Shown here: in pieces, positions 27,309 through 40,125 of the stretch
Numbering within the stretch: the first letter of the stretch is position 1
How the letters are laid out: each line of letters begins with the position of its first letter
From: Fibrobacteria bacterium
GTDB lineage: Bacteria; Fibrobacterota; Fibrobacteria; UBA11236
DNA: 64,000 nt
Assembly (NCBI GenBank): GCA_043745805.1
Contig: JAYTSD010000014.1
Location: 32,001 to 96,000 of the forward strand
Direction of reading: 5' to 3'
Made by a program: the position numbers and the translations under genes
The notes under the pieces: generated by a model
Seen by the model: the letters and a program-made list of their open reading frames with translations, nothing else
Databases searched by the model: none
What the model was told of the DNA's origin: nothing

Positions 27309-27528
27309 ATTTCATCCGTTTTGTTTGCAAAGTAGCCGTTTATTAGTCAAAAAATGCGGTTTATTTCCTAATAAAGCATGAATTTTATATTTGCCCTCAA
27401 ATTCAAGTATTAGTTGACAGCGATATTTGAATTTTCACCTTATATTGCCAAAGTAAAAACATTTTCAAATAGCCCTTATTATTCATTTTGAATCCATGTG
27501 GGCAGTTGGAAATTTCTGGAGGAATCTA

Positions 27529-29157
27529 ATGAATACAAAAATTGGTTCAAAGATTAAAATATTAGCTTTTTTGCTAGCTGCTGCAACCACTCAGCAATCG
27601 GCATGGGCAGTATTTAAATATACTGGATGCGATGACTTAACCGATTCAGTATTTCAAAATGTAAACCTTGTCACGCAATCTAATAGTGGCATAAATGAGC
27701 CGATAAAAATGGCCTTAGATGCAGATGCTGCTGGCAATGTCGATATATACTGGGTGGAAAGACATGGTGGAGTGAAACGCTATAATGGAGCTGCAAAAAC
27801 GGTTGATTCCTTGGCTACAATTTTCGTTGCTGATGAGTTTGAATCTGGACTTACAGGTATAGCTCTTGATCCTAATTTTAAAAACAATCACTGGATTTAT
27901 CTTTATTATACATACGGCGGCGCTAGTGGAGCAAAAAAACCTGGGTCAACGGGTTATTGGTTTCGACTTTCTCGCTTTACTTTAGGAGCAAACAATAAGC
28001 TAAATACTTCATCGGAAATAGTGTTATTAAGCATTCCAGCCTATTATCGTGAAAGTCATACCGGTGGGGCCATGCGTTTTGATGAGAGTGGTAACCTATA
28101 TATTACTACGGGTGAAAATGGTGCGAGCGTTGAGGGCACCGCTAATACCAATGATTTACGTGGAAAAGTTTTGCGAATTAAACCGAAAGCAATTCCCGAA
28201 GGCACGGCATTGACCAGTTCGGGGCTGGGGGTTACCTATGATATCCCAACTGGAAACCTCTATCCTGAAGGGACAGCAAAAACACGTCCTGAAGTTTATG
28301 TAATGGGAGCTCGGAATCCTTACTCCATTAGCTTAGACCCCATCCGCAAAGCTGTGATGTGGGGGGATGTAGGTCCCGATGGTACCGGCGTGACTGAAGA
28401 ACATAATATCACTTCTGTTCCGGGTTATTTCGGTTATCCCTATTTTGCGGGAGTAAATAAAAATATTAGTGGAACACAAACCGCAGCAACGCCAATAGTA
28501 GATACCAATGTGAATTTAGGATTACCTAAACATACCGGTTTGCGCGAACTGAAACCCGCCATTCCAGCGGTAAATGCTTACAATCAAGCCGCAGCCATCA
28601 CGGGTCCATTATATCGCTATCATGGCCAATTAAAATCCACGATGAAAATGCCCCCTCATTTCGAGGGTATTTGGTTTGTTTCCGATTTTAGTGATTCATG
28701 GGTAGAAGCGTTAACCCTTGATGCTGCTGGCCTCAATGTTGTGGCAAGAGAAAAAGTTTTTACTAAACTGCATTTTTATAAACCTATTGATATTCAAACT
28801 GGCCCTGATGGAGCAATGTATTTTATCAATTATGGGGGATACTTTAGTGCAAATGCGAATACGTCCATCTCACGCGTGGAATACAAGGGCAAATGTTTAC
28901 CTGCTTTAGCAGAAGGCATTTCACAATCGACGAATTTGCAACATGAATTTATGCATATAAATGGTTTAAATGTTACCGTAACGGGTTCAGGCTCCCATCA
29001 GATAGTAGTGATGAATCTTCAAGGTCAAACCTTAAAAGAATTTAAAGGAAAAGGAGCTGCTAATTACAACTTAGCCACCCTTGCTAAAAGCGGCATTTAC
29101 TTTATAAAAATTATTTCGGAACATGGATCGTTCACCGAAAAAATATTTAAACCCTAA
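27529..29157 (+). CDS. secreted glucose/sorbosone (PQQ-dependent sugar) dehydrogenase-like beta-propeller, paralogue 1
   Basis: Signal peptide ending AWA, GIALDPNF, HTGGAMRF, NTNDLRGKVLRI, RPEVYVMGARNPY, GPDGA.Y, C-terminal NLQG...GIYFIKI tail. ATG 27529 follows GGAGGA; the ORF track starts at 27496. Confidence 0.85.
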   Translation: MNTKIGSKIKILAFLLAAATTQQSAWAVFKYTGCDDLTDSVFQNVNLVTQSNSGINEPIKMALDADAAGNVDIYWVERHGGVKRYNGAAKTVDSLATIFVADEFESGLTGIALDPNFKNNHWIYLYYTYGGASGAKKPGSTGYWFRLSRFTLGANNKLNTSSEIVLLSIPAYYRESHTGGAMRFDESGNLYITTGENGASVEGTANTNDLRGKVLRIKPKAIPEGTALTSSGLGVTYDIPTGNLYPEGTAKTRPEVYVMGARNPYSISLDPIRKAVMWGDVGPDGTGVTEEHNITSVPGYFGYPYFAGVNKNISGTQTAATPIVDTNVNLGLPKHTGLRELKPAIPAVNAYNQAAAITGPLYRYHGQLKSTMKMPPHFEGIWFVSDFSDSWVEALTLDAAGLNVVAREKVFTKLHFYKPIDIQTGPDGAMYFINYGGYFSANANTSISRVEYKGKCLPALAEGISQSTNLQHEFMHINGLNVTVTGSGSHQIVVMNLQGQTLKEFKGKGAANYNLATLAKSGIYFIKIISEHGSFTEKIFKP

Positions 29158-29201
29158 ACAGCTAAATCTTTACTTCACCCTCAATATCGAGTAACCTAAA
29201 C

Positions 29202-30785
29202 ATGAAAAAAAAATTAAACCCCTTAATAAAGAAACTAGCCTTCTGCGCTTTGGCCATAGCTAGTCATGAAACTCCATGGGCCGCTTTTACTTATGGTACT
29301 TGTAGTCCCATAGCCGAAAGTGATTTTACCGCTGTAAAATTGGTCCCAGCTAGTACAGGTATTAAAGAACCCATTAAAATGGCAACTCATGCAGATGCCG
29401 CAGGTAATGTGGATGTTTACTGGGCAGAAAGAGGCGGGGATGTAAAAAAATATTCTGGCGGTGCCAAAACAGTCAAAACCATGGGTACGGTATTAACCGA
29501 ATTGGAATATGAATCAGGGCTTACAGGTATTGCTCTTGATCCAAAATTTGATACCAATCATTGGATGTATCTCTATTACACTACCGGCGGCGCGGATCCG
29601 AAAGATTTTTTTCGAATCAGTCGATTTACTGTGGGATCAAACGATATGCTCGATATGGCTTCTGAAAAAATTGTTTTAACTTTTCAGGCTAAGCATGGCG
29701 GAATGCATTCCGGCGGTGCAATGCGCTTTGATGGAAATAATGATTTGTGGATTACGGTTGGTGAAAATCAAGCCGGTGAAAATGGTACAGCAAATACCAA
29801 TGATTTACGCGGAAAAATTCTTCGCATACATCCAACCGATGACGGTAAATACACAATTCCTGCCGGTAATCTTTTTGCTGAAGGCACTGCAAAAACCCGT
29901 CCGGAAATTTATGTAATGGGTGGACGCAACCCCTATACATTGGCACTCGATCCCGTGCGGAAAGCAGTAGTATGGGGCGATGTCGGTCCTGACCAAGGAC
30001 TAATTACCGAAGAATTTAACTTCACCAAAGTTCCTGGCAATTTTGGATACCCCTATTTTGCTGGCGCAAATGAAATTTTACCTGGATTTACCGGAAAATC
30101 GCCTGCCGCACCAACAAATAATGCTACGGGAAATACTGGCTTAGTTAGTTTGCCTGCTGCCATCCCTGCCATATATGCCTATAAACAATCCTCAGCCGCA
30201 ACAGGACCGATTTATTATTATCAAAACAGTATAAATACAAAAATCAAATTTCCGCCTCATTTCGACGGAACATGGTTTGTTTCGAATATGCGTCCTAATT
30301 GGTTTGAGGGGGTAACATTAAATGCTGCCGGCACCGTAAAAGAAACTACGGAAAGATTATTTCCTAGTATGTTTGGTCCCATTATTGGTGAAGCACTTGA
30401 TTTTGAATTTGGACCCGATGGAGCATTATACGTACTTTCTTACGGTGAAAGCTGGCGTGCAGCAGATTCTAAAACGGGTATAGTACGCATTGAATACAAG
30501 GGAAGCTGTTTACCCACCGACTTTGTCAGTAAAATTGGAACCGTATCGATTAACAAAACACAATTGGATCAAAATACTTTTAAAATGGAAAATCAAAGTT
30601 TTTCCATTTTAAGTGAAGGTCCGCATATCTTAGAAATACATGATATAGCAGGAAGGTTGGTCTTCGCTAAAACCGGAATAGGTCCTGCCCGCTATTCCAT
30701 GCTAGAAATTCCCAAAAATGGAATTTATCTACTTCGTTTACAAAATGCAGCCGGAGTATTTTCCAAGAAATTAATTCGTGAATAA
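29202..30785 (+). CDS. secreted PQQ-dependent sugar dehydrogenase-like beta-propeller, paralogue 2
   Basis: Same motifs (HSGGAMRF, NTNDLRGKILRI, GGRNPY, FGPDGALY), with a DIAGR...GIYLLRL tail. Confidence 0.85.
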   Translation: MKKKLNPLIKKLAFCALAIASHETPWAAFTYGTCSPIAESDFTAVKLVPASTGIKEPIKMATHADAAGNVDVYWAERGGDVKKYSGGAKTVKTMGTVLTELEYESGLTGIALDPKFDTNHWMYLYYTTGGADPKDFFRISRFTVGSNDMLDMASEKIVLTFQAKHGGMHSGGAMRFDGNNDLWITVGENQAGENGTANTNDLRGKILRIHPTDDGKYTIPAGNLFAEGTAKTRPEIYVMGGRNPYTLALDPVRKAVVWGDVGPDQGLITEEFNFTKVPGNFGYPYFAGANEILPGFTGKSPAAPTNNATGNTGLVSLPAAIPAIYAYKQSSAATGPIYYYQNSINTKIKFPPHFDGTWFVSNMRPNWFEGVTLNAAGTVKETTERLFPSMFGPIIGEALDFEFGPDGALYVLSYGESWRAADSKTGIVRIEYKGSCLPTDFVSKIGTVSINKTQLDQNTFKMENQSFSILSEGPHILEIHDIAGRLVFAKTGIGPARYSMLEIPKNGIYLLRLQNAAGVFSKKLIRE

Positions 30786-30951
30786 TTCCTTGCTATTGTG
30801 ACTGCTTGCAGTACAAAAGCAAAAAAACCATTATTTTATTGTTCCCAGCGGAAAATTAGTTTTCCGCTTATATTCCCCATATCACTTGTATTTGCGAATG
30901 GCTTGAGTTTTCTCAACTTTTCGTTTTATGGCAGAAAATTATGGGGGACAA

Positions 30952-32547
30952 ATGATACTTACAAAAAAAGCCAATTTAAAAGCCATGGGGCTACTAACCC
31001 TAGCGATAGCATCTCAATATGCAGCTTGGGCCGCGTTTACCGTTCCAAGTTGCCCAACCGTGACCGATGCCGAATTCACTGCTGTAACCCTAGTTAATGG
31101 CGATAGTATTAATGAACCCATAAAAATGGCAACGCATGCTGATGGCGCAGGTAACGTAGATATTTACTGGGTGCAACGTCATGGAGATATAAAAAAATAT
31201 ACGGGCGCTACCAAAAAATTCGCCACTATCGGTCATATCGACGGCCCATCAGAGTTTGAAGACGGAGTAACCGGTATCGCCTTAGATCCTTCTTTCGATA
31301 CCAACCACAATATTTTTCTCTATTATGCTTTTGGAGATGTTACGAAATTTTCATTTCGTATTTCACGATTCACTCTAGGTAATGGGGATGCCCTCATAAT
31401 GTCTTCGGAAAAAATCATTTTGGAAAACCCAGCAAAATACCATACCTTACATACCGGTGGCGCAATGCGCTTTGACCGATTTGGAGATTTATGGATAACC
31501 ACCGGCGAAAATAATTCAGGGGAAAAAAGTACCTCCAATACCAACGATTTAAGAGGAAAAATTTTGCGTATCCATCCCACTTCTGATGGAAAATACACTA
31601 TTCCCGCAGGAAATTTATATCCCGAAGGCACCGCTAATACGCGCCCAGAAATTTATGTAATGGGTGCTCGAAACCCCTACTCCATTGCTCTCGATCCCGT
31701 TCGTAATGCAATAGCATGGGGCGATGTAGGTCCCGATGAAGGCGGTATAACTGAGGAGTTTAACTATACCAAAATACCCGGTTTTTTTGGTTACCCTTAC
31801 TTTGCGGGAAACAATCTTTCACGTCCTGATTATCCCGGACAAAATGCTAGCACCCCAATTTGGAAAAATACCATCGCCGCAAATGAGCCCTACAAACCGG
31901 GCTTGCCAAATCTGAAACCAGTTATCCCTGCTATCTATCCTTATCAAAAATCCGCAGCGATTACCGGACCCATCTATTACTATAACCCTAGCCTCAAATC
32001 CCCTATAAAATTTCCGCCGCATTTCGATGGTATTTGGTTCGTGTCGGATTTTCAAAATACTTGGATAGAAGGGGTCACCTTAGACATACCTGGATTAAAA
32101 AAAGAAAATTCCGAAAGAGTTTTTGTGGACATTTTTAAAAATGTGATCAAAGAACCGATTGATTATGAATTTGGGCCAGATGGTGCGTTATATGTACTTA
32201 GCTATGGAGGAAAATGGCGCGACCACGATGCAAAAACAGCCCTTGTGAGAATCGAATACAAAGGCACTTGCAATCTTCCCACCTTCGTTTCCAAGGTAGG
32301 AACCGTTTCTTTAACTAAAAATGAATTGGCTCATAAGGTTTTTAAAATTCAAGGGCAAAATATTTCAATATTAACCGAAGACACGTACAGCTATGCGGTA
32401 TGTGATATTACGGGTAAAATTATAATTTCCCATCGTGGCGAGGGTAACGCCCAATTCTCTTTACGAGAACTACCTCAAAACGGCTTGTACTTGATAAGTA
32501 TTAAAACTAAGCAAGGTTCCTTTTCGCAAATTATTGCCTCTCACTAA
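30952..32547 (+). CDS. secreted PQQ-dependent sugar dehydrogenase-like beta-propeller, paralogue 3
   Basis: Same motifs, with a DITGK...GLYLISI tail. ATG 30952 follows GGGGGA; the ORF track starts at 30928. Confidence 0.85.
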   Translation: MILTKKANLKAMGLLTLAIASQYAAWAAFTVPSCPTVTDAEFTAVTLVNGDSINEPIKMATHADGAGNVDIYWVQRHGDIKKYTGATKKFATIGHIDGPSEFEDGVTGIALDPSFDTNHNIFLYYAFGDVTKFSFRISRFTLGNGDALIMSSEKIILENPAKYHTLHTGGAMRFDRFGDLWITTGENNSGEKSTSNTNDLRGKILRIHPTSDGKYTIPAGNLYPEGTANTRPEIYVMGARNPYSIALDPVRNAIAWGDVGPDEGGITEEFNYTKIPGFFGYPYFAGNNLSRPDYPGQNASTPIWKNTIAANEPYKPGLPNLKPVIPAIYPYQKSAAITGPIYYYNPSLKSPIKFPPHFDGIWFVSDFQNTWIEGVTLDIPGLKKENSERVFVDIFKNVIKEPIDYEFGPDGALYVLSYGGKWRDHDAKTALVRIEYKGTCNLPTFVSKVGTVSLTKNELAHKVFKIQGQNISILTEDTYSYAVCDITGKIIISHRGEGNAQFSLRELPQNGLYLISIKTKQGSFSQIIASH

Positions 32548-32826: not shown

Positions 32827-33369
32827 ATGATCAATATTATGTTTAAAATGAGTCCTAAATTAAAACGCTCACAAGGGTTCACCTTAAAAGAAATCATGGT
32901 GGTTGTAGCTATCATTGGCATATTAACGGCTGCAGCAAAGCCGTCCGTAAAAAATTTATATCTCTCGTATAAATATCAAAATGCAGAGAATGCTGTAAAA
33001 CATTTAGTGCAAACCGCTCGCAGCAGAGCCATTGCAAATCCTAGCGTGCATTATGGCGTGCATTTAGATCTAAACTCCGTCCCACAAAAAGTGTTTCTTT
33101 TTGCCGATACCGATTCGCCTTCTTCGAATCAGTGGAGCGCCAATGACAAGGCCTATTTACAACCTTATTCATTACCAATAAATATTTCCATATCCATCCC
33201 TACAAATAAAGGAAGCCTTTCCAGTGACCTTATTTTCAGAGGCGATGGCTCGGCATTTTTGCCCTTTGAGGTAGTGATTGTTGCCAGTTTAAGTTCTACA
33301 AAATCTTTAGAAGATACTTTGGATGTTTTACCCAGCACGGGAAGGATTAAGGTTATCAAATGCAAATAA
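32827..33369 (+). CDS. FimT/FimU (GspH)-like type IV minor pilin, cassette 1
   Basis: Class III signal G|FTLKEIMVVVAIIGIL, ARSRAI, IFRGDG, TGRIK at the C-terminus. Confidence 0.85.
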   Translation: MINIMFKMSPKLKRSQGFTLKEIMVVVAIIGILTAAAKPSVKNLYLSYKYQNAENAVKHLVQTARSRAIANPSVHYGVHLDLNSVPQKVFLFADTDSPSSNQWSANDKAYLQPYSLPINISISIPTNKGSLSSDLIFRGDGSAFLPFEVVIVASLSSTKSLEDTLDVLPSTGRIKVIKCK

Positions 33370-33806
33370 TTTGCAAGCCCATGAAAGTAAACTCCAAAGG
33401 GTTAACGCTGTTAGAAATACTTATAGCAATTATAGTAGTGGGTATAGGTAGCACTGTTTATCTACGCGTGCAGCATATGTCGGGAGGTGTTAACAGAACC
33501 AATTCTGCTTTATTCCGTGCTGGCCAAATGGTAGAAAAACACATTGAGGCCATTCGCGTACAAATTGCCAAAGATACCAATGGCTTAAGATGGGTACCTC
33601 AAAATAATTTTATTGAAAGTGATTCTTCGGGTAGTCCCAAACTAAATTTAACGCGCAAGGTAAGTACCGTAACTGCTCCCAAACCCGATGCAGGAGGAAC
33701 TTATGCCAATATCCCTTCGGTGCGCAAAATTGATATCGTGGTCAAATGGGGTACTGGGGCAATGGATTCCTTGAATGTGACAACTTATGTTTCCAAAAAA
33801 TTTTAA
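33360..33806 (+). CDS. PilV-like minor pilin, cassette 1
   Basis: G|LTLLEILIAIIVVGIG, ...IEAIR..., RKIDIVVKWG. Confidence 0.82.
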   Translation: MQIICKPMKVNSKGLTLLEILIAIIVVGIGSTVYLRVQHMSGGVNRTNSALFRAGQMVEKHIEAIRVQIAKDTNGLRWVPQNNFIESDSSGSPKLNLTRKVSTVTAPKPDAGGTYANIPSVRKIDIVVKWGTGAMDSLNVTTYVSKKF

Positions 33807-34554
33807 TTGTAAAAAAGGATTTTCCTTAATTGAGATTTTAATTGTAATCGCTGTGGCCGGAATTTTACTTGTCATTATTACTCGCTTTTTAAAAGATTCG
33901 AAACGTATTTATAATCTGCAAGAAGAATTAACTGAGCGTGATCAAAATGCGCAGTATGCTCTAAAGCGCTTAGCCGAAAGATTAATGGAAGCGGGAGCAG
34001 GGTTACCCACAACCGGCTACGCCATAATTAATACTAGTGGAAATCCAGTTAATTCTTTCACCGTAGCCACCAATCCAAGGGGTGGGCAACAAATTATTAC
34101 TAATACTATAGTTGCCGATTCGGTTATTCCTGCGGATGACACTTTAAGCTTTGAAAAAACAGACAGTGTGTTAATAGTTCCTAAAAACCCAATTACGCCA
34201 TTAACAACTTGCCCGTTCAAGCGCGCCGGATTAAAATCGGGAAACTTCGTTATCGTGACTACGATTATAAACACTTTGCAAATCGGTGATATGGTATATG
34301 GTTTAAAAAAGGAAAACTATAACCTAACTGCAAATAATTTATGCTTAGAGAATTCGGTTTTAGCAGAAAACATTGATTCGCTTGCTATTCTCTTTAATGA
34401 TATTGCCGGAAATCCCACTAGCACGTGGACGAATATGCGGTCTGCAAAAATTACCGTGCGGGCACGCACACAACATTCTTTTCCAAATATGCCAGGTGAT
34501 GGATATCTGCGTAGACAGTTATCTATAGAAGTTGGTTTTAGAAATAAAAACTAA
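33787..34554 (+). CDS. PilW-like minor pilin, cassette 1
   Basis: G|FSLIEILIVIAVAGIL, LMEAG, LAENIDSL, ITVRART, C-terminal FRN. Confidence 0.85.
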   Translation: MFPKNFNCKKGFSLIEILIVIAVAGILLVIITRFLKDSKRIYNLQEELTERDQNAQYALKRLAERLMEAGAGLPTTGYAIINTSGNPVNSFTVATNPRGGQQIITNTIVADSVIPADDTLSFEKTDSVLIVPKNPITPLTTCPFKRAGLKSGNFVIVTTIINTLQIGDMVYGLKKENYNLTANNLCLENSVLAENIDSLAILFNDIAGNPTSTWTNMRSAKITVRARTQHSFPNMPGDGYLRRQLSIEVGFRNKN

Positions 34555-34564
34555 AGGAGGCATT

Positions 34565-36442
34565 ATGCCTAAGTCCATTGAAAAGCTAAAATCTCAAAAA
34601 GGTTTTATCCTAATTTTCTCCGTACTCATGATACTAGGTATATCCGCATTGGCCGTAGGCATGATTTACAATTCACGCATGAATAATGCTACTGCCCAAA
34701 ATTACAAAAACAAAATCCAATCGTTTTATGCTGCCGATGGTATGATGTCACTTTTGGCTGATGAGGTCTTAAGCGGAAGAGATACCCTTTATACCAATGC
34801 CGCCCAAAGAGATACCATAACCGGTAGCGTTTACAATAAAATCAACTCTGTGGATGTGCAAAACTTTAGGTCTCAAACCCAAGGCAGTAATGGTAACCAA
34901 ACGGTTACCGCACTTTATTTGGGATCGGCATGGTTAGGAACTGTAAAACCCACATGGAGTAGTTTTGGAATTTTATGGAAAGGATATATTTACCCACCCA
35001 TCACGGGATCCTATCGTTTTTTTGTTAGAGGGGATGACAATACGGCCTTTTATTTAAGTACATCCGAATTTCTTATTGATCTTCCAAGAAGTCCCACGGC
35101 TTATAACTATTCCTCTGTATCTTATTCCAAAGGATGGCCCACTGTAGAAAACCCACAAATGAGTGGAGACTGCTCAAACTGTGATCCAGTATCCGATCCT
35201 ATCTCATTAAAAGGTGGGAAAAAATATTATTTCGAATATTATCATACGCATGTGAATGGTAACGATTTTGGACAAGTTGGGTGGGCTGGCCCTGAATGGA
35301 TTGATGAAAAACCAATTCCGGGATCAAGGCTTTCGAAATATATTGTTTCGAACCCTACCGTAACACAAGACGACTCCATAAAAATAGGTAATGTGATGGT
35401 GCAATATCGCGTCACTCCATTGGGTGATAATGAATACACTCTTTTTACTCAAGGTTCGAAACGAAGAACGGGTACCGATACCATTTATAAAATTCCATTA
35501 AATCAAAAAATTTCTTTCCGAGGACAAAGCTCCGCACCTCCGGATACCCTGTGGTCGAAAGTGATTTTTCATGATTTTCATGCTCGAAATTGGCCACTCC
35601 TTTCCAACAATCCCGAATTTCAGAATGATAATGTGATTTATGGTTGGGGTGGAGCATCAGCACATACGGGAATGGTTGAGTCAAATTTTCTTAAGCAAAC
35701 AGCAACCGATGCAAATTACTTTAATATGGCAAGAATAGGAAAACCCATTAATATTATTGATAGTACCTTAAGAACCGTTACAGCTGCCGATAAGAAAAAT
35801 GTTTGGCGCAGTTGTAAAATGGAAAAATGGTTTGTGGATTGGACTCCAGGTGATTTTAAAATTCCGCGCTATCAAGAACTTCCAGCAGGTGGTGACCAAA
35901 ATAATGCCACCTATGCAGCCAATGTATTATCCGACTGCGTTTTACAAACAGTGACCTATGACACGGCCTTTAAAAATGCAAAAATCTATGACTCTCTTCC
36001 TTTAGTTAGAACTATGGTAAATGGTACTTATTCCTATTTGTACGAACGAACTTATCAAAACAATAAAGATTTTTTTCCTATCGACAATCGAGGTTTTGGT
36101 AATGAAGGACGTCCGCATAATTTTTCATTTTGTATGGAAATGCACTCTACCTTTGAATTTAAGCCTGGCCTAACCTTTGATTTTGAAGGGGATGACGATA
36201 TATGGATTTTTATAAATGGTAAGCTCGAAATGGATTTAGGAGGGCATCATGTGCAAACAGGCGGAAGCATAAATATGGACGCTTTGAACTTGGTTTACGG
36301 GAAAAACTATCCCTTTGAACTATTCTATTGTGAAATGATGTGCTGCGGGTCTGACATTAAAATCACTACCAATCTCCCGATTGGATCGGGACGCGGCACC
36401 TTAAAGAAGAGCTGGCAGCGCGATTACGGCTCCATGGATTAA
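34565..36442 (+). CDS. PilX-like pilin fused to PA14 and fibro-slime domains, cassette 1
   Basis: G|FILIFSVLMILG (no Glu5), QSFYAADG; PA14 WKGYIYPPITGSYRFFVRGDD; fibro-slime FFPIDN.GFGNEG..HNFSFCMEMH...FEGDDDIWIFINGKLEMDLGG.H. ATG 34565 follows AAAGGAGG. Confidence 0.85.
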   Translation: MPKSIEKLKSQKGFILIFSVLMILGISALAVGMIYNSRMNNATAQNYKNKIQSFYAADGMMSLLADEVLSGRDTLYTNAAQRDTITGSVYNKINSVDVQNFRSQTQGSNGNQTVTALYLGSAWLGTVKPTWSSFGILWKGYIYPPITGSYRFFVRGDDNTAFYLSTSEFLIDLPRSPTAYNYSSVSYSKGWPTVENPQMSGDCSNCDPVSDPISLKGGKKYYFEYYHTHVNGNDFGQVGWAGPEWIDEKPIPGSRLSKYIVSNPTVTQDDSIKIGNVMVQYRVTPLGDNEYTLFTQGSKRRTGTDTIYKIPLNQKISFRGQSSAPPDTLWSKVIFHDFHARNWPLLSNNPEFQNDNVIYGWGGASAHTGMVESNFLKQTATDANYFNMARIGKPINIIDSTLRTVTAADKKNVWRSCKMEKWFVDWTPGDFKIPRYQELPAGGDQNNATYAANVLSDCVLQTVTYDTAFKNAKIYDSLPLVRTMVNGTYSYLYERTYQNNKDFFPIDNRGFGNEGRPHNFSFCMEMHSTFEFKPGLTFDFEGDDDIWIFINGKLEMDLGGHHVQTGGSINMDALNLVYGKNYPFELFYCEMMCCGSDIKITTNLPIGSGRGTLKKSWQRDYGSMD

Positions 36443-36464
36443 TTTTACTCTAAAATCCCTCAAA

Positions 36465-36491
36465 AAAAAGCCGCTTATCTAGCGGCTTTTT
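36465..36491 (+). terminator. intrinsic terminator ending pilin cassette 1
   Basis: AAAAAGCCGCT-TATCT-AGCGGCTTTTT. Confidence 0.85.
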
Positions 36492-36544
36492 GTTACAATC
36501 TTTTAAAGTCTTCGATATTTAAGGTAACTTTACTTCATAGTTAT

Positions 36545-37051
36545 ATGCTTAATATAAATCCTAAATTACATCTGTCCCGAGGCTTCACTTTAAAAGAGCT
36601 CATGGTGGTCGTTGCTGTGATTGGGATTATGTCGGCTGTGGCTGTTCCATCGATTTCCGGCTTGTATCGTTGGTATCAATATTCTAATGCGCAGAATGCC
36701 ATTAAACATTTATTACAAACCGCAAAAGGTCGCGCTATGACTAATCCCAATATTCACTGCGGCGTGCATTTTTCTGCGATAGGAGATACCATTTTATTGT
36801 TTAATGATTCCGACCCACTTACTCCGAATACCTATGCTGTCGCAGATCAAAAATATTTACAACCTTATATTGTGCCTAAAAAAATTTCCATATCATTTGT
36901 TTCCGCCAATAAGGACATAATTTTTCGCGGGGATGGTTCAACCTTTGCAAGTTTTAATGCAAAAATTTCAATTCACTGGAAAGGCAGCGATAGCCTGACA
37001 AGTGTCCTAAGTGTTCTACCTAGTACTGGAAGGATAAAGCTTACAAAATGA
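36545..37051 (+). CDS. FimT/FimU (GspH)-like minor pilin, cassette 2
   Basis: G|FTLKELMVVVAVIGIM, AKGRAM, IFRGDG, VLPSTGRIK; paralogue of 32827-33369. Confidence 0.85.
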   Translation: MLNINPKLHLSRGFTLKELMVVVAVIGIMSAVAVPSISGLYRWYQYSNAQNAIKHLLQTAKGRAMTNPNIHCGVHFSAIGDTILLFNDSDPLTPNTYAVADQKYLQPYIVPKKISISFVSANKDIIFRGDGSTFASFNAKISIHWKGSDSLTSVLSVLPSTGRIKLTK

Positions 37052-37449
37052 AATATCCACTTATTAAAAAATCGGGATGGACGCTCTTAGAAACTCTGAT
37101 AGCTATTGTCGTTATAGGAATTGGCACCGGAGTTTATATGCGCATGCAAGGTATGACCGGCGGAGTCACTAAAAGCAATTCCAATTTGTTTAAAGCGGGA
37201 CAGATGATTGAAAAGCATATAGAAGGCATTCGTGTCCAAGTAGCTATGGACCAAACCAACTGGATCCCAGGCGATATAACGGTATTAGATCCACCCCTAA
37301 AGCTTGTTAGAACAGTTTCAAATGCATACTCTCCGAAAGCACCCACAGTTGTGGTAGCCGATGTTAGAAAAGTGGATTTAGTAGTGAGTTGGGGAAATAA
37401 ACCTATGGATACCCTTAAGGTGACTACCTATGTATCAAAAAAATTCTAA
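37048..37449 (+). CDS. PilV-like minor pilin, cassette 2
   Basis: G|WTLLETLIAIVVIGIG; shares AGQM.EKHIE.IRVQ and VTTYVSKKF with the cassette 1 copy. Confidence 0.82.
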   Translation: MKYPLIKKSGWTLLETLIAIVVIGIGTGVYMRMQGMTGGVTKSNSNLFKAGQMIEKHIEGIRVQVAMDQTNWIPGDITVLDPPLKLVRTVSNAYSPKAPTVVVADVRKVDLVVSWGNKPMDTLKVTTYVSKKF

Positions 37450-38215
37450 ATCCCCAAAAGGGGTCACATTTATTGAACTCCTAATTGTAATGGCAGTAGC
37501 TGGAATATTGTTAGTTATTGTTACTCGTTTCATAAAATCTTCCCGGAAAGTTTACAACCTTCAAGAAGATATAGCCGAGCGCGATCAAAATGCTTATTAC
37601 TCTATAAAAATGCTCTCAGAACGACTAATGGAAGCTGGTGCCAATTTACCCGATACTAACACCAACTATAATGCTGTCGTTATCAACACAAACCCAGCGA
37701 ATTCTTTTAAATTAATGGTAAATCCACGTGGGGGATTTTATACGGTGGTTGCAAATTTTAACTCGAATCGAATACTCGTAGACGATGGCGGCAGCTTTAA
37801 AAATGCAGATAGTATCTTGGTAGTTCATCCTAATAATTCAACGCCCACGCGTTATGACTTATTAAGTGTTGCCATAGCGCCTACTAATTTTGATACTCTG
37901 AAATTGTTGAGTGCGCAACCGTTTTCTACCGGAGATCAAATCTACGCTTTTACCACAGAAAGCTATTTGTTAATTAACAATAATTTATGTGTAAAGACCA
38001 AATCCACAGTGCCGGATACTCTAGCTGAAAATATAGATAGCTTGACCATTCTATTTAAAGATGTGGCGGGATTCACAACAACCGATTGGAAATTAATGCG
38101 TTATGCAAATCTTTCCATAACAACTCGAATTCAACGTGCAAATCCTGCTTTAGGAGCAGATAGCTGTAAACGCCGCACCCTGTCAATGGAATTAGGTTTT
38201 AGGAACAAAATTTAA
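37430..38215 (+). CDS. PilW-like minor pilin, cassette 2
   Basis: G|VTFIELLIVMAVAGIL, ERDQNA, ERLMEAGA, LAENIDSL, GFRNK. Confidence 0.85.
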   Translation: MYQKNSKSPKGVTFIELLIVMAVAGILLVIVTRFIKSSRKVYNLQEDIAERDQNAYYSIKMLSERLMEAGANLPDTNTNYNAVVINTNPANSFKLMVNPRGGFYTVVANFNSNRILVDDGGSFKNADSILVVHPNNSTPTRYDLLSVAIAPTNFDTLKLLSAQPFSTGDQIYAFTTESYLLINNNLCVKTKSTVPDTLAENIDSLTILFKDVAGFTTTDWKLMRYANLSITTRIQRANPALGADSCKRRTLSMELGFRNKI

Positions 38216-38224
38216 GGAGGAAAT

Positions 38225-40075
38225 ATGTCCAATTTAAAACATTCTCAAAAAAAAGGTTTTATCCTTATTTTTGCCATTTTGATGATATTAGGGATATCTG
38301 CCATGGCGGTTGGCATGGTTTACAATTCCAGAATGACTAATATCACAGCTGCAAATTACAAAAACAAAATTCAATCCTTTTATGCCTCTGATGGCCTCAT
38401 GACCTTACTTGCACAAGAGCTATTAAATGGAAATGATAATATTTATACCAACAGTGGCAAAAAAGATTCGATTGCTGGAAAACTATGGAAACAAGATTTT
38501 GATCATATCAGTGACCTAATGACTAAAGGTAACATAGGTTATACCCCCATAACATCCTATTCCCTTGGGTCGTATTGGCTAAATCAGGGTCCAGATGGAA
38601 CATGGCCCATTACGCAAAAGTATGGAGTACTTTGGGAGGGATATTTATATCCTCCGGTTACGGGTTCCTATATTTTTTATGAACGCTCCAATGCCGAAGG
38701 TAAGTTTTTTCTGAGCACGGATGATGATCCTGTTAACCTTTCGCCAAATGCCTTGGTGTTTAATACAAATTGGATGGATGAAAAAGATCCATGGCCAACA
38801 CCTGCTAATTCAATTAAACCTATTACTATATATGATAAAACGGTTTCCAGTGCTCAAAACTTAATAGCAGGGAAACGTTATTACTTCAAATATTATCACA
38901 TAAAAGGTGGTGATGATGATTTTGGTCAAGTAGGCTGGTCAGGACCGAATCAATTAGTAGAAAAACCCATTCCAGGTAACCGTATGTCTCCCTATGATGG
39001 GACAATCCTAACCAATGGAGCTTTTGATTCCACAACTGTTGGATCAATTAAAGTGCGCTACAGTGTCACACAAATTAACAACTCACAATACTCCCTTTTT
39101 ACGGAAGGATTCAAACGCAAAAGTGGCAGTGATTCAACTTATAGAGTACCTCTTAACCAAATGCTTTCGCTTAGTGGAGATGCCGGCATTCCTTCCGATC
39201 AAATAAAAGTACCGGTTATTTATTATGATTTTAGTAGTGGCTGGATGACTACTACGGGAAATGGAGAATTTGAAAACCAGGAAAATGGTGGTGCTAGCGC
39301 TCATAAAGGTATGGTACGAAACAATCAAATGATTTATGATTTCAATAATGCAAACTACTTTGGACTAGATACCCTTTGGAAACCAATGTTAACTACCGAT
39401 GCAACCAAAATTTGGCATAGTTGTAATGTGGAAAAGTGGTTTGTGCCTTGGTCGAATGCAGACCCTAAAAATCTATATCCTCCAAAAACTGTCACTAGCA
39501 ATGCCGATGGAGATTATAATAACTGTACGAAACCAAATTGGCCGGGACTGCAAAATAATAAAGCAAACAGAGAGCGATTCAAAAATTATGCTATACGAGA
39601 TTCATTAACTTTTGATAGACAACCTGAAATTGGTACTTCCACTTATATGTTTTCCAAAACTGGAGGTGCAAATACAGATTCTTCTTTTTTTCCGCTTGAT
39701 AAATTTACTGGCACGGCAGATAGTGGATGGGGGAAAGAAGGTAAATCGCATAATTATTCTTTTTGTATGGAAATGCATATAAAATTTGAGTTTACCCCAG
39801 GACTAGTTTTTGAGTTCGAAGGTGATGATGATGTCTGGGCATTCATTAATCACAAACTTGCTATGGATTTAGGAGGAAATCACGTATCCGTTACAGGTAC
39901 AGCAAATTTTGACATGCTAGGATTGAAAATTGGGACGACTTATCCCTTTGATTTTTTCTTTTGCGAAAGGCATACCACAGAGTCGCATATGAAAGTGGTG
40001 TCCAATTTGCCTCTTGGCAAAGGCGATGGAATCCCACATAGGAACTGGAAACGCGACTACGGCTCTATGGACTAA
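38225..40075 (+). CDS. PilX-like pilin fused to PA14 and fibro-slime domains, cassette 2
   Basis: G|FILIFAILMILG, NYKNKIQSFYASDG; WEGYLYPPVTGSY; FFPLD...HNYSFCMEMH...FEGDDDVWAFINHKLAMDLGG.H...FFCERHT. SD AAGGAGG. Confidence 0.85.
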   Translation: MSNLKHSQKKGFILIFAILMILGISAMAVGMVYNSRMTNITAANYKNKIQSFYASDGLMTLLAQELLNGNDNIYTNSGKKDSIAGKLWKQDFDHISDLMTKGNIGYTPITSYSLGSYWLNQGPDGTWPITQKYGVLWEGYLYPPVTGSYIFYERSNAEGKFFLSTDDDPVNLSPNALVFNTNWMDEKDPWPTPANSIKPITIYDKTVSSAQNLIAGKRYYFKYYHIKGGDDDFGQVGWSGPNQLVEKPIPGNRMSPYDGTILTNGAFDSTTVGSIKVRYSVTQINNSQYSLFTEGFKRKSGSDSTYRVPLNQMLSLSGDAGIPSDQIKVPVIYYDFSSGWMTTTGNGEFENQENGGASAHKGMVRNNQMIYDFNNANYFGLDTLWKPMLTTDATKIWHSCNVEKWFVPWSNADPKNLYPPKTVTSNADGDYNNCTKPNWPGLQNNKANRERFKNYAIRDSLTFDRQPEIGTSTYMFSKTGGANTDSSFFPLDKFTGTADSGWGKEGKSHNYSFCMEMHIKFEFTPGLVFEFEGDDDVWAFINHKLAMDLGGNHVSVTGTANFDMLGLKIGTTYPFDFFFCERHTTESHMKVVSNLPLGKGDGIPHRNWKRDYGSMD

Positions 40076-40092: not shown

Positions 40093-40125
40093 AAAAAAAA
40101 GCCCGCTAATAAGCGGGCTTTTTTT
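40093..40125. terminator. bidirectional intrinsic terminator
   Basis: A8-GCCCGCT-AATA-AGCGGGC-T7 between converging genes. Confidence 0.9.

Follow-up and report, generated by a model that had tools for sequence, protein, structure and literature searches.

Two tandem four-gene cassettes of minor-pilin type lie on the + strand at positions 32827–40075 of the window, i.e. the whole 64 000-nucleotide stretch analysed here (contig JAYTSD010000014.1 of assembly GCA_043745805.1, from a Fibrobacteria bacterium; the contig is called C14 below). Each cassette is read as encoding a tip/priming complex of a type IVa pilus, in which the cap pilin, devoid of the Glu5 of its partners, would be a double-lectin adhesin replacing PilY1, with alternative caps produced by duplication; a probability of about 0.6 is assigned to this reading. 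The fourth gene of each cassette, X, joins a prepilin N-terminus to a PA14 domain and a fibro-slime module; this fusion and its gene order are conserved among related genomes, and X occurs together with an orthologue of the platform protein PilC. The observation made in the initial annotation of the stretch was confirmed and the interpretation attached to it is partly supported. What is new is the lectin (PA14 plus fibro-slime) variant of the cap pilin; modular pilins, bulky PilX proteins in place of PilY1 and multiple minor-pilin sets were known already from other phyla.

The eight open reading frames (ORFs) form two paralogous cassettes, A and B, the genes of which were labelled H, V, W and X by position (Table 1). 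Within the cassettes, neighbouring genes overlap by 4–20 nt or are separated by gaps of 9–10 nt. Both cassettes are closed by a hairpin and a subsequent run of T, and for neither hairpin did any of 200 shuffled sequences fold equally well, which bears out the description of two separately terminated units. The paralogues share only 46–56% identity; the duplication is therefore old. A sigma-70 promoter scan gave 20 sites versus a shuffle mean of 25.2, i.e. fewer than in the shuffles, and no promoter is named. The ORF of X_A is open from a TTG codon at 34532 (636 aa, 34532–36442), but the alternative ATG at 34565 (625 aa) is more likely to be the true start because the resulting 13-residue leader resembles the leaders of the paralogues.

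Table 1. Features of the two cassettes (positions in the window; arrows mark the predicted cleavage site after Gly-1).
Feature	Position	Strand	Remarks
H_A, GspH/FimT-FimU-like minor pilin	32827..33369	+	First gene of the H-V-W-X order; 180 aa; G↓FTLKE
V_A, PilV/GspI-position minor pilin	33360..33806	+	148 aa; G↓LTLLE; 10-nt overlap with H_A
W_A, PilW/GspJ-like minor pilin	33787..34554	+	255 aa; G↓FSLIE
X_A, Glu5-less PilX/GspK-position putative cap pilin with PA14 and fibro-slime	34565..36442	+	625 aa; KG↓FILIF
X_A N-terminal helix (pilin alpha1), residues 14–69	34604..34771	+	Helix 12–69 in the model; best-conserved part among the three paralogues
X_A PA14/GLEYA lectin-type domain, residues 85–262	34817..35350	+	Pfam PA14 and GLEYA; between helix and sheet
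X_A four-stranded sheet, residues 268–318	35366..35518	+	Model strands 270–274, 277–287, 290–300, 307–317
X_A fibro-slime module, residues 325–625	35537..36439	+	TIGR02148 core at residues 518–604 (nt 36116–36376)
Intrinsic terminator of cassette A	36465..36491	+	Hairpin −16.1 kcal/mol, z −7.2, then TTTTT
H_B	36545..37051	+	168 aa; G↓FTLKE; 52% identity to H_A
V_B	37048..37449	+	133 aa; G↓WTLLE; 56% identity to V_A
W_B	37430..38215	+	261 aa; G↓VTFIE; 46% identity to W_A
X_B	38225..40075	+	616 aa; KG↓FILIF; 46% identity to X_A
Intrinsic terminator of cassette B	40094..40125	+	Hairpin −20.9 kcal/mol, z −5.6, then T run

Class III signal peptides are present in all eight proteins, as had been claimed. 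In the six small proteins the motif G↓(F/L/W/V)xxxE is followed by a hydrophobic stretch, and Glu5 is found in H, V and W of both cassettes. The prepilin-domain model TIGR02532 (cut-off 16.3) was passed by all six with 18.1–30 bits (26.6 bits for H_A, 18.1 bits for V_B), and Pfam N_methyl by five of them (27.2, 24.3 and 29.8 bits for H_A, V_A and W_A); V_B (ORF6) reached 19.3 bits on the latter versus a cut-off of 21.2. X_A and X_B retain Gly-1 but carry Phe at position +5, so the absence of Glu5 from the fourth protein of each cassette also stands. An AlphaFold2 (AF2) model of W_A [predicted local distance difference test (pLDDT) score 88.8] gave as its top Foldseek match in the PDB the model of the XcpGHIJK complex (9a1f_S; E = 9e-3, probability 1.0, TMt 0.54), with EpsJ and XcpW at probabilities of 0.80–0.87; the modelled fold of W thus appears nearest to GspJ-type pseudopilins, which agrees with the proposed reading without proving it. 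Membership of the Verru_Chthon type of four-gene cassette was considered and rejected, the scores being at most 25.4 bits for TIGR02596 (cut-off 70) and at most 20.5 bits for TIGR02599 (cut-off 256.5).

Both X proteins exceed 600 aa and pass the cut-offs for the two domains that had been reported in them: Pfam PA14 (PF07691, cut-off 24) with 61.0 bits in X_A and 52.4 bits in X_B, and fibro-slime TIGR02148 (cut-off 45) with 112.1 and 117 bits. The AF2 model of X_A, built on 26 relatives [pLDDT 76.7, predicted template-modelling (pTM) score 0.65], runs from the helix (12–69) through a beta domain (∼85–262) and the strands at 270–317 to a second beta module that extends to the C-terminus. The start of the fibro-slime module was placed at about residues 317–327 because proteins with ordinary signal peptides align to X only from there on. 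Foldseek searches of the PDB with X matched the clostridial PA14 tandem 6qe7/6qdi (E = 2e-10) and the sugar-binding PA14 domains of the Epa, Flo and MpAFP adhesins (E = 1e-5 to 4e-4), and a search of the ESM Atlas returned PA14 clusters only, with no matches for the pilin part. Judged from its secondary structure, the four-stranded sheet may be the head sheet of the pilin. On this model X is read as a three-module pilin, with PA14 as an insertion between helix and head sheet and the fibro-slime module as a C-terminal addition. The possibility that 'PA14' and 'fibro-slime' are two names for one domain was rejected, as Pfam/NCBIfam and the model place them in two separate modules of PA14 fold.

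A protein search with X returned 67 matches; 55 of them span 91% or more of X_A, the three copies from this genome among them. The full-length relatives share 25–50% identity and all derive from metagenomes or metagenome-assembled genomes (MAGs); their source names are fibro-slime domain-containing, psiC or hypothetical, pilin is never used, and their public Pfam lists comprise PA14 and GLEYA only, without N_methyl and PilX_N. A search of the genome collection found full-length X at six of the best 80 loci, all in Fibrobacterota MAGs, one of which is labelled Chitinispirillaceae; the fibro-slime core alone is present in many phyla. All 26 X relatives examined for it match PA14, and a GDDDxW stretch is invariant in the fibro-slime module of the family. 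Gene order was compared in 21 loci from 16 Fibrobacterota genomes (20 fetched stretches around X genes plus L033), with ORFs classed by phmmer. H-V-W stands immediately upstream of X in 20 of them, the 21st being truncated by a contig end. Among 27 X genes, 20 follow W, five follow another X (an X-X pair with one H-V-W set, in loci L099, L101, L102, L104 and L108) and two have their upstream side cut off. One locus (L097, on G263:C93) has the layout X - H V W - H V W X, in which the middle set is without an X of its own.

The N-terminal motifs are conserved as well. Gly-1 is kept in X (26/26), H (23/23), V (20/21) and W (21/22), and Glu5 in W (22/22), V (20/21) and H (20/23, the remaining three having Gln), whereas position +5 of X is never Glu (Phe in 15, Leu in five and Val, Met and Ile in two each of 26 proteins). 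Among the 67 database matches, Glu5 was found in none of 47 X-type N-termini. The architecture described in the initial annotation is thus real and conserved, and is best taken as a core minor-pilin set whose Glu5-less cap pilin would itself be the lectin adhesin.

A third X gene was found in the source genome (G000) on the − strand of contig C1 at 219635–221497 (L091:636–2498). It encodes 620 aa, begins KG↓FILIF, matches PA14 with 56.9 bits and is ∼50% identical to X_A and X_B (52 and 51%); it is solitary, with no H, V or W alongside, and may be an orphan alternative cap subunit. Five fibro-slime frames are present in the genome, two of them on proteins with ordinary signal peptides. Identity among the three X paralogues is highest in leader and helix (66–73%) and in the fibro-slime core (59–62%) and falls to 37–50% in PA14 and to 37–45%, with indels, in the front of the fibro-slime module. 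A paired-Asp motif is found in the fibro-slime core of all three, X_B keeping GDDDVW there. In a rapid maximum-likelihood tree built from 30 X proteins, supported by Shimodaira–Hasegawa-like approximate likelihood-ratio values (SH-aLRT) only and containing two joined long branches that are not to be trusted, three supported clades stand side by side within each of the genomes G250 and G253, the copies of G252 fall in two and the three copies of the source genome lie within one (support 99); the X-X pairs have several independent origins. These comparisons indicate that X has been duplicated repeatedly. The alternative tips that had been postulated would correspond to the several cap subunits that do exist, namely those of the two cassettes and the orphan copy.

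The initial annotation took as the case against a pilus a genome with type II secretion system (T2SS) machinery only. This is not what was found. The 99% complete genome encodes ten T2SSE-family ATPases (five of them long), four secretins, two platform proteins and a single prepilin peptidase (Peptidase_A24). Contig C17 carries pilB-pilT-pilC, in which PilB passes its equivalog cut-off (681.8 versus 675.65 bits), as does the PilT-family ATPase (479.6 versus 319.1 bits), and the platform protein matches the PilC model best. C12 carries pilM-pilN-pilO followed by a 760-aa protein and a secretin, with PilM_2, PilN, PilO and Secretin all passing the Pfam cut-offs, and C20 carries a PilA-like pilin. 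By its gene content the genome thus holds a type IVa pilus machine and not T2SS-like systems alone. No prepilin other than the eight cassette proteins was found by the motif scan of C14, in line with the remark that pilE and a major pilin are missing from the window.

Further filament genes of the genome were recorded as side observations. A PilMNO-secretin-ATPase cluster lies on C31, and two more free minor-pilin sets lie on C32 and C8. Similar clusters at C31:121601–132088 (L085) and C33:33580–43321 (L087) encode a GspE/PilB-like ATPase, a secretin, small membrane proteins, a non-Glu5 K-like protein (458 or 490 aa) and two pilins, with no T2SSF platform protein. The set at C32:63036–66589 (L088) has an X-first order (581, 172, 153 and 293 aa); its W-position protein is distantly related to the W of the window (E = 6e-10), and the 581-aa protein, which lacks Glu5, matches cyanobacterial HpsA over a short stretch (E = 1.4e-9; 36 bits versus a cut-off of 400). 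Apart from this sub-threshold match, NCBIfam and Pfam gave no family-level names to the genome's other pilin sets and large K-like proteins. MshE-type cyclic-di-GMP-binding N-terminal motifs (cut-off 38) are present in PilB-like ATPases at C38:39550–41478 and C31:22488–24629 (117.3 and 51 bits) and likewise in the PilB of C17 (42.8 bits).

The distribution of X was compared with that of PilC in 39 genomes of the order, a PilC orthologue being defined by at least 58% identity, whole or fragment. Such an orthologue is present in 26 genomes, and X was found in 20 of these and in none of the 13 others (in 19 of 25 PilC-holding genomes if the unpublished G254 is left out). Within a genus represented by 12 genomes, a PilC orthologue occurs solely in G269 and G274, and so does X. 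The genome G274, 99% complete and in one contig, carries H-V-W-X-X, and its only T2SSF platform protein is encoded behind pilB-pilT; G269 likewise has the cassette and a platform protein of the PilC type only. In G271, which has a different ATPase-PilT-platform cluster with a platform protein 38% identical to PilC, X was not found.

Taken together, these results suggest the following mechanism. Each cassette would supply a core minor-pilin set of the GspH-I-J-K or FimU-PilV-PilW-PilX kind, all four proteins of which would be cleaved after the invariant Gly by the single prepilin peptidase. V, W and the Glu5-less X would form a cap priming assembly of the filament at the PilC platform, and H would connect this cap to the major pilin, for which the PilA-like gene on C20 is the candidate. 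(A complex prediction for the soluble parts of V, W and X, residues 36–340 of the last, gave 0.69, but a control in which W was replaced scored higher at 0.78, so that the result bears on binding in neither direction.) PilB would then drive the filament out through the PilMNO-secretin machine with X remaining distal, so that the tip would bear two lectin-type modules, PA14 and the ∼300-residue fibro-slime module, whose probable target is an insoluble or surface polysaccharide; retraction by PilT would draw the cell onto this substrate. X would thereby fill the adhesin and cap role held by PilY1/PilC in Proteobacteria, and the two cassettes together with the orphan X would provide alternative tips in which the assembly helix is kept and the lectin parts have diverged most.

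Several observations weigh against this mechanism. The names FimT/U, PilV, PilW and PilX given in the initial annotation are its weaker point: the order and sizes of the genes fit them, but the remaining basis is sub-threshold matches, since GspH TIGR01708 (cut-off 80) scored 31 bits for H_A and 34 bits for H_B, PilV TIGR02523 (cut-off 52.2) 22.5 bits for V_A and 26.7 bits for V_B, and PilX_N (PF14341, cut-off 25.5) 17.8 and 14.4 bits for the two X proteins. PilX_N reached E ≤ 0.1 in just seven of 26 X relatives (best 6.9e-4), and family-level models named none of the eight cassette genes. None of the Foldseek matches of W_A reaches E = 1e-3, and profile searches of PDB sequences with H, V and W matched the N-terminal helix alone, so pilins are not separable from pseudopilins in this way. 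In the PA14 domain of X_B the Asp pair is missing (RSNAE, versus RGDDN in X_A and RADDQ in the orphan copy). The Asp pair of PA14 lectins has a role in Ca-dependent sugar binding. As regards the machinery, the platform protein of C17 is best matched by the PilC model yet stays below its cut-off (456.8 versus 700 bits), the PilQ model falls 1 bit short (283.3 versus 284.35), and other filament systems are at hand, namely a GspF-like platform with five pilins on C8 and the ATPase-secretin clusters without a platform protein on C31 and C33. The cassettes adjoin no pilus machinery gene either in the source genome or in the 21 related loci, so that their link to the type IVa machine is indirect. 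The genomes compared for co-occurrence are kin, and most of those without PilC belong to one genus of small genomes; both of the PilC-less small genomes tested lack any type IV filament (T4F) ATPase, so this part of the pattern cannot separate one pilus system from another. PilC orthologues without X, at least with the query used, were found in G251, G264, G265, G241 and G244, so the machine does not depend on X. The absence of PilY1, finally, rests on a search (PF05567) that gave no match at E ≤ 1 in the source genome and that has unproven sensitivity, as none of 14 control genomes matched either. By this search the absence noted in the initial annotation holds for the whole genome, but it is a trait of the phylum (one of 296 genomes has a match) and not particular to the locus. 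The sole match in the phylum (45.7 bits, G265:C158:1446–2204, in a 1145-aa frame) comes from a genome in which the PilC orthologue is kept and no X fusion was found with the query, and can be regarded only as an anecdote.

The most serious rival is that the cassettes serve another type IV filament, either the T2SS-like system of C8 or one of the ATPase-secretin systems of C31 and C33, X capping a short pseudopilus or a different pilus. In its favour, T2SS and type IVa pili have the H-I-J-K order in common, W resembles T2SS pseudopilins most closely in the fold search, the best sub-threshold match of H is GspH, and the genome has ten T2SSE-family ATPases and four secretins, with the cassettes adjoining none of these systems. 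The W match is, however, unable to discriminate GspJ from PilW because, to our knowledge, the PDB contains GspJ structures and no PilW structure. Moreover, the C8, C31 and C33 clusters each bring pilins of their own, including a non-Glu5 K-like protein, whereas G274 and G269 possess the cassette with a PilC-type platform protein only and G271 possesses a non-orthologous ATPase-PilT-platform cluster yet no X. A cap with ∼550 residues of lectin modules would also have no obvious use on a periplasmic pseudopilus. This alternative is considered unlikely.

It is improbable that X is not part of a filament at all, in which case its prepilin-like N-terminus would be an inner-membrane anchor or a release route and its lectin modules would be periplasmic or would act as free surface proteins of the fibro-slime type. 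The occurrence of the fibro-slime module on proteins with ordinary signal peptides (two here, many elsewhere) and the sub-threshold PilX_N score would fit such a role, but not the association of X with three Glu5 pilins in one operon, nor the cap-pilin pattern of an invariant Gly-1 with Glu5 consistently missing, nor the fact that X was never seen without a PilC orthologue in the 39 genomes. Least credible is a lectin tip that binds the exopolysaccharide of the cell itself for secretion, gliding or cell–cell cohesion, as proposed for pilus-like systems of the Hps type. The HpsA match of the C32 set (far below its cut-off) and a PilX subfamily linked to polysaccharide secretion in the accessible part of PMC13759059 lean towards it. 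Against it, the cassettes have no neighbours in the window for making or exporting polysaccharide (the 21-locus search covered pilus machinery and not polysaccharide genes), F. succinogenes fibro-slime proteins are tied to cellulose binding in the portion of PMC4668043 consulted, and it differs from the double-lectin tip proposed here in the ligand alone.

The query for a survey of the phylum was the first 330 residues of X_A, which comprise the pilin part and PA14. Matches were obtained in 58 of 296 Fibrobacterota genomes and in 19 of the 31 genomes of the family of the source organism; together with the gene order conserved in 20 of 21 loci, this answers the call for a survey of fusion and synteny made in the initial annotation. 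None of the 151 genomes of f6, the largest family of the phylum, matched this query, and f6 is inferred to be Fibrobacteraceae because named Fibrobacter records match the C-terminal module only. Distant families gave matches to residues 4–113 within frames of 630–760 aa, and one 751-aa frame (G065:C4) holds both the pilin-side match and the fibro-slime part; the fusion therefore spans classes, and with the query used none was found in Fibrobacter proper. On this distribution one claim is not supported, namely that the fusion physically links the two adhesion factors of Fibrobacter: it was found in none of the f6 genomes, the F. succinogenes literature consulted treats fibro-slime proteins and pili as separate proteins, and the sequencing data of the source organism (four DNA sets) come from one sediment metagenome study. 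The results thereby correct a tempting but unsupported tie to the models of cellulose adhesion in F. succinogenes. They offer a concrete candidate, a double-lectin pilus tip subunit, for the attachment of environmental Fibrobacterota to particulate polysaccharide. As a tentative extension, to which less than even odds are given, the cap pilin of Fibrobacterota outside the Fibrobacter family may itself be the pilus adhesin, exchangeable and fast-diversifying; a cell would own several such caps, encoded in tandem cassettes, in X-X pairs that share an H-V-W set and as orphan X genes, and swapping them on one type IVa machine would retarget a retractile 'grappling hook' among insoluble polysaccharides, with the free (Fibrobacter) and the pilin-borne fibro-slime proteins being two deployments of one module.

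The genes that flank the cassettes are unrelated to them. Upstream lie three tandem glucose/sorbosone-dehydrogenase-like paralogues (27496–32547; 553, 527 and 539 aa), the first with a sub-threshold match to a type IX secretion C-terminal sorting domain (24.8 versus 27 bits); downstream are genes for YceI, a phosphoribosyltransferase, a STAS protein, an M3 peptidase and aconitase.

Among known systems, the fibro-slime proteins of F. succinogenes (TIGR02148; PMC3079729) are homologous to X in their C-terminal ∼300 residues, including the GDDDxW core, and share the presumed role in polysaccharide adhesion; unlike X, they are free proteins with ordinary signal peptides. In the accessible sections of PMC4668043 and PMC4704652 they and the pili of this organism are separate factors, and a fibro-slime–FlgD fusion is the only fusion mentioned in those of the latter. 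The literature search found no report joining fibro-slime with PilX and none joining 'PA14 domain' with 'minor pilin'. The suggestion that the architecture is uncharacterized is nevertheless overstated: modular pilins, bulky PilX proteins and several sets per genome have been published. The PA14 lectins (Candida Epa, yeast Flo, Marinomonas MpAFP and the clostridial RsgI tandem 6qe7/6qdi) share the fold of the X modules (E = 2e-10 to 4e-4) and the paired Asp, which is kept by all three fibro-slime cores and, among the PA14 domains, by those of X_A and of the orphan copy. They differ in that here the domains ride on a pilin, and in the PA14 domain of X_B, which is without the Asp pair.

The GspH-GspI-GspJ-GspK tip of the T2SS (9a1f; EpsI-EpsJ 2ret and 3cfi) has the same gene order, and the modelled fold of W appears most like that of GspJ; GspK is likewise a Glu5-less cap with an extra domain, the alpha-domain, inserted in the pilin fold, as described in the accessible part of PMC8179133. 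The cassettes, in contrast, lie outside any gsp operon, their inserted and appended modules are lectin folds and the co-occurrence points to PilC rather than to a GspF-like platform. The same source, as far as accessible, reports more than 1200 modular pilins in 264 architectures, ranks one with PA14 as one of the 15 most frequent and compares such pilins to PilY1. In Streptococcus sanguinis PilB (vWA) and PilC (lectin) a binding module is grafted on a pilin and was shown at the tip, the lectin module of PilC binding glycans (PMC8179133 and PMC9934059, both in part). Here the carrier is, by its motifs, a cap pilin of the K/X type, with one module inserted in the fold and one appended. The survey in PMC8179133 required, in the section consulted, the IPR012902 motif, and the X proteins were probably missed by it as they do not match that motif because of the lacking Glu5. 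They provide a worked example of how modular cap pilins escape motif-based surveys.

Myxococcus xanthus has several minor-pilin sets per genome, as does the present organism. The FimU-PilV-PilW-PilX pilins of Pseudomonas aeruginosa and M. xanthus with PilY1 (PMC7541494, in part) are encoded in an alike four-gene order, with three Glu5 pilins followed by a Glu5-less cap, and an alike priming of assembly and display of an adhesin at the tip is presumed here. Unlike in that complex, PilY1 was not detected in the genome and the ∼620-aa X itself bears the adhesin modules; there is also no fifth pilin of the PilE kind, none of the family models is passed and the cassettes stand apart from the other pil genes. 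A further parallel is found in cyanobacteria, in which, according to the accessible part of PMC13759059, several FimU-PilVWX sets prime distinct pili from one shared machine and a bulky beta-solenoid PilX is proposed to replace PilY1 as the cap. The phylum without PilY1, the enlarged PilX and the several sets per cell are features in common. The additional parts are two lectin modules of PA14 fold here rather than a beta-solenoid. As the paralogous sets described here are close kin (46–56% identity), a difference in ligand is likelier between them than one in filament type, and Fibrobacterota would be the second phylum with an enlarged PilX that apparently substitutes for PilY1.

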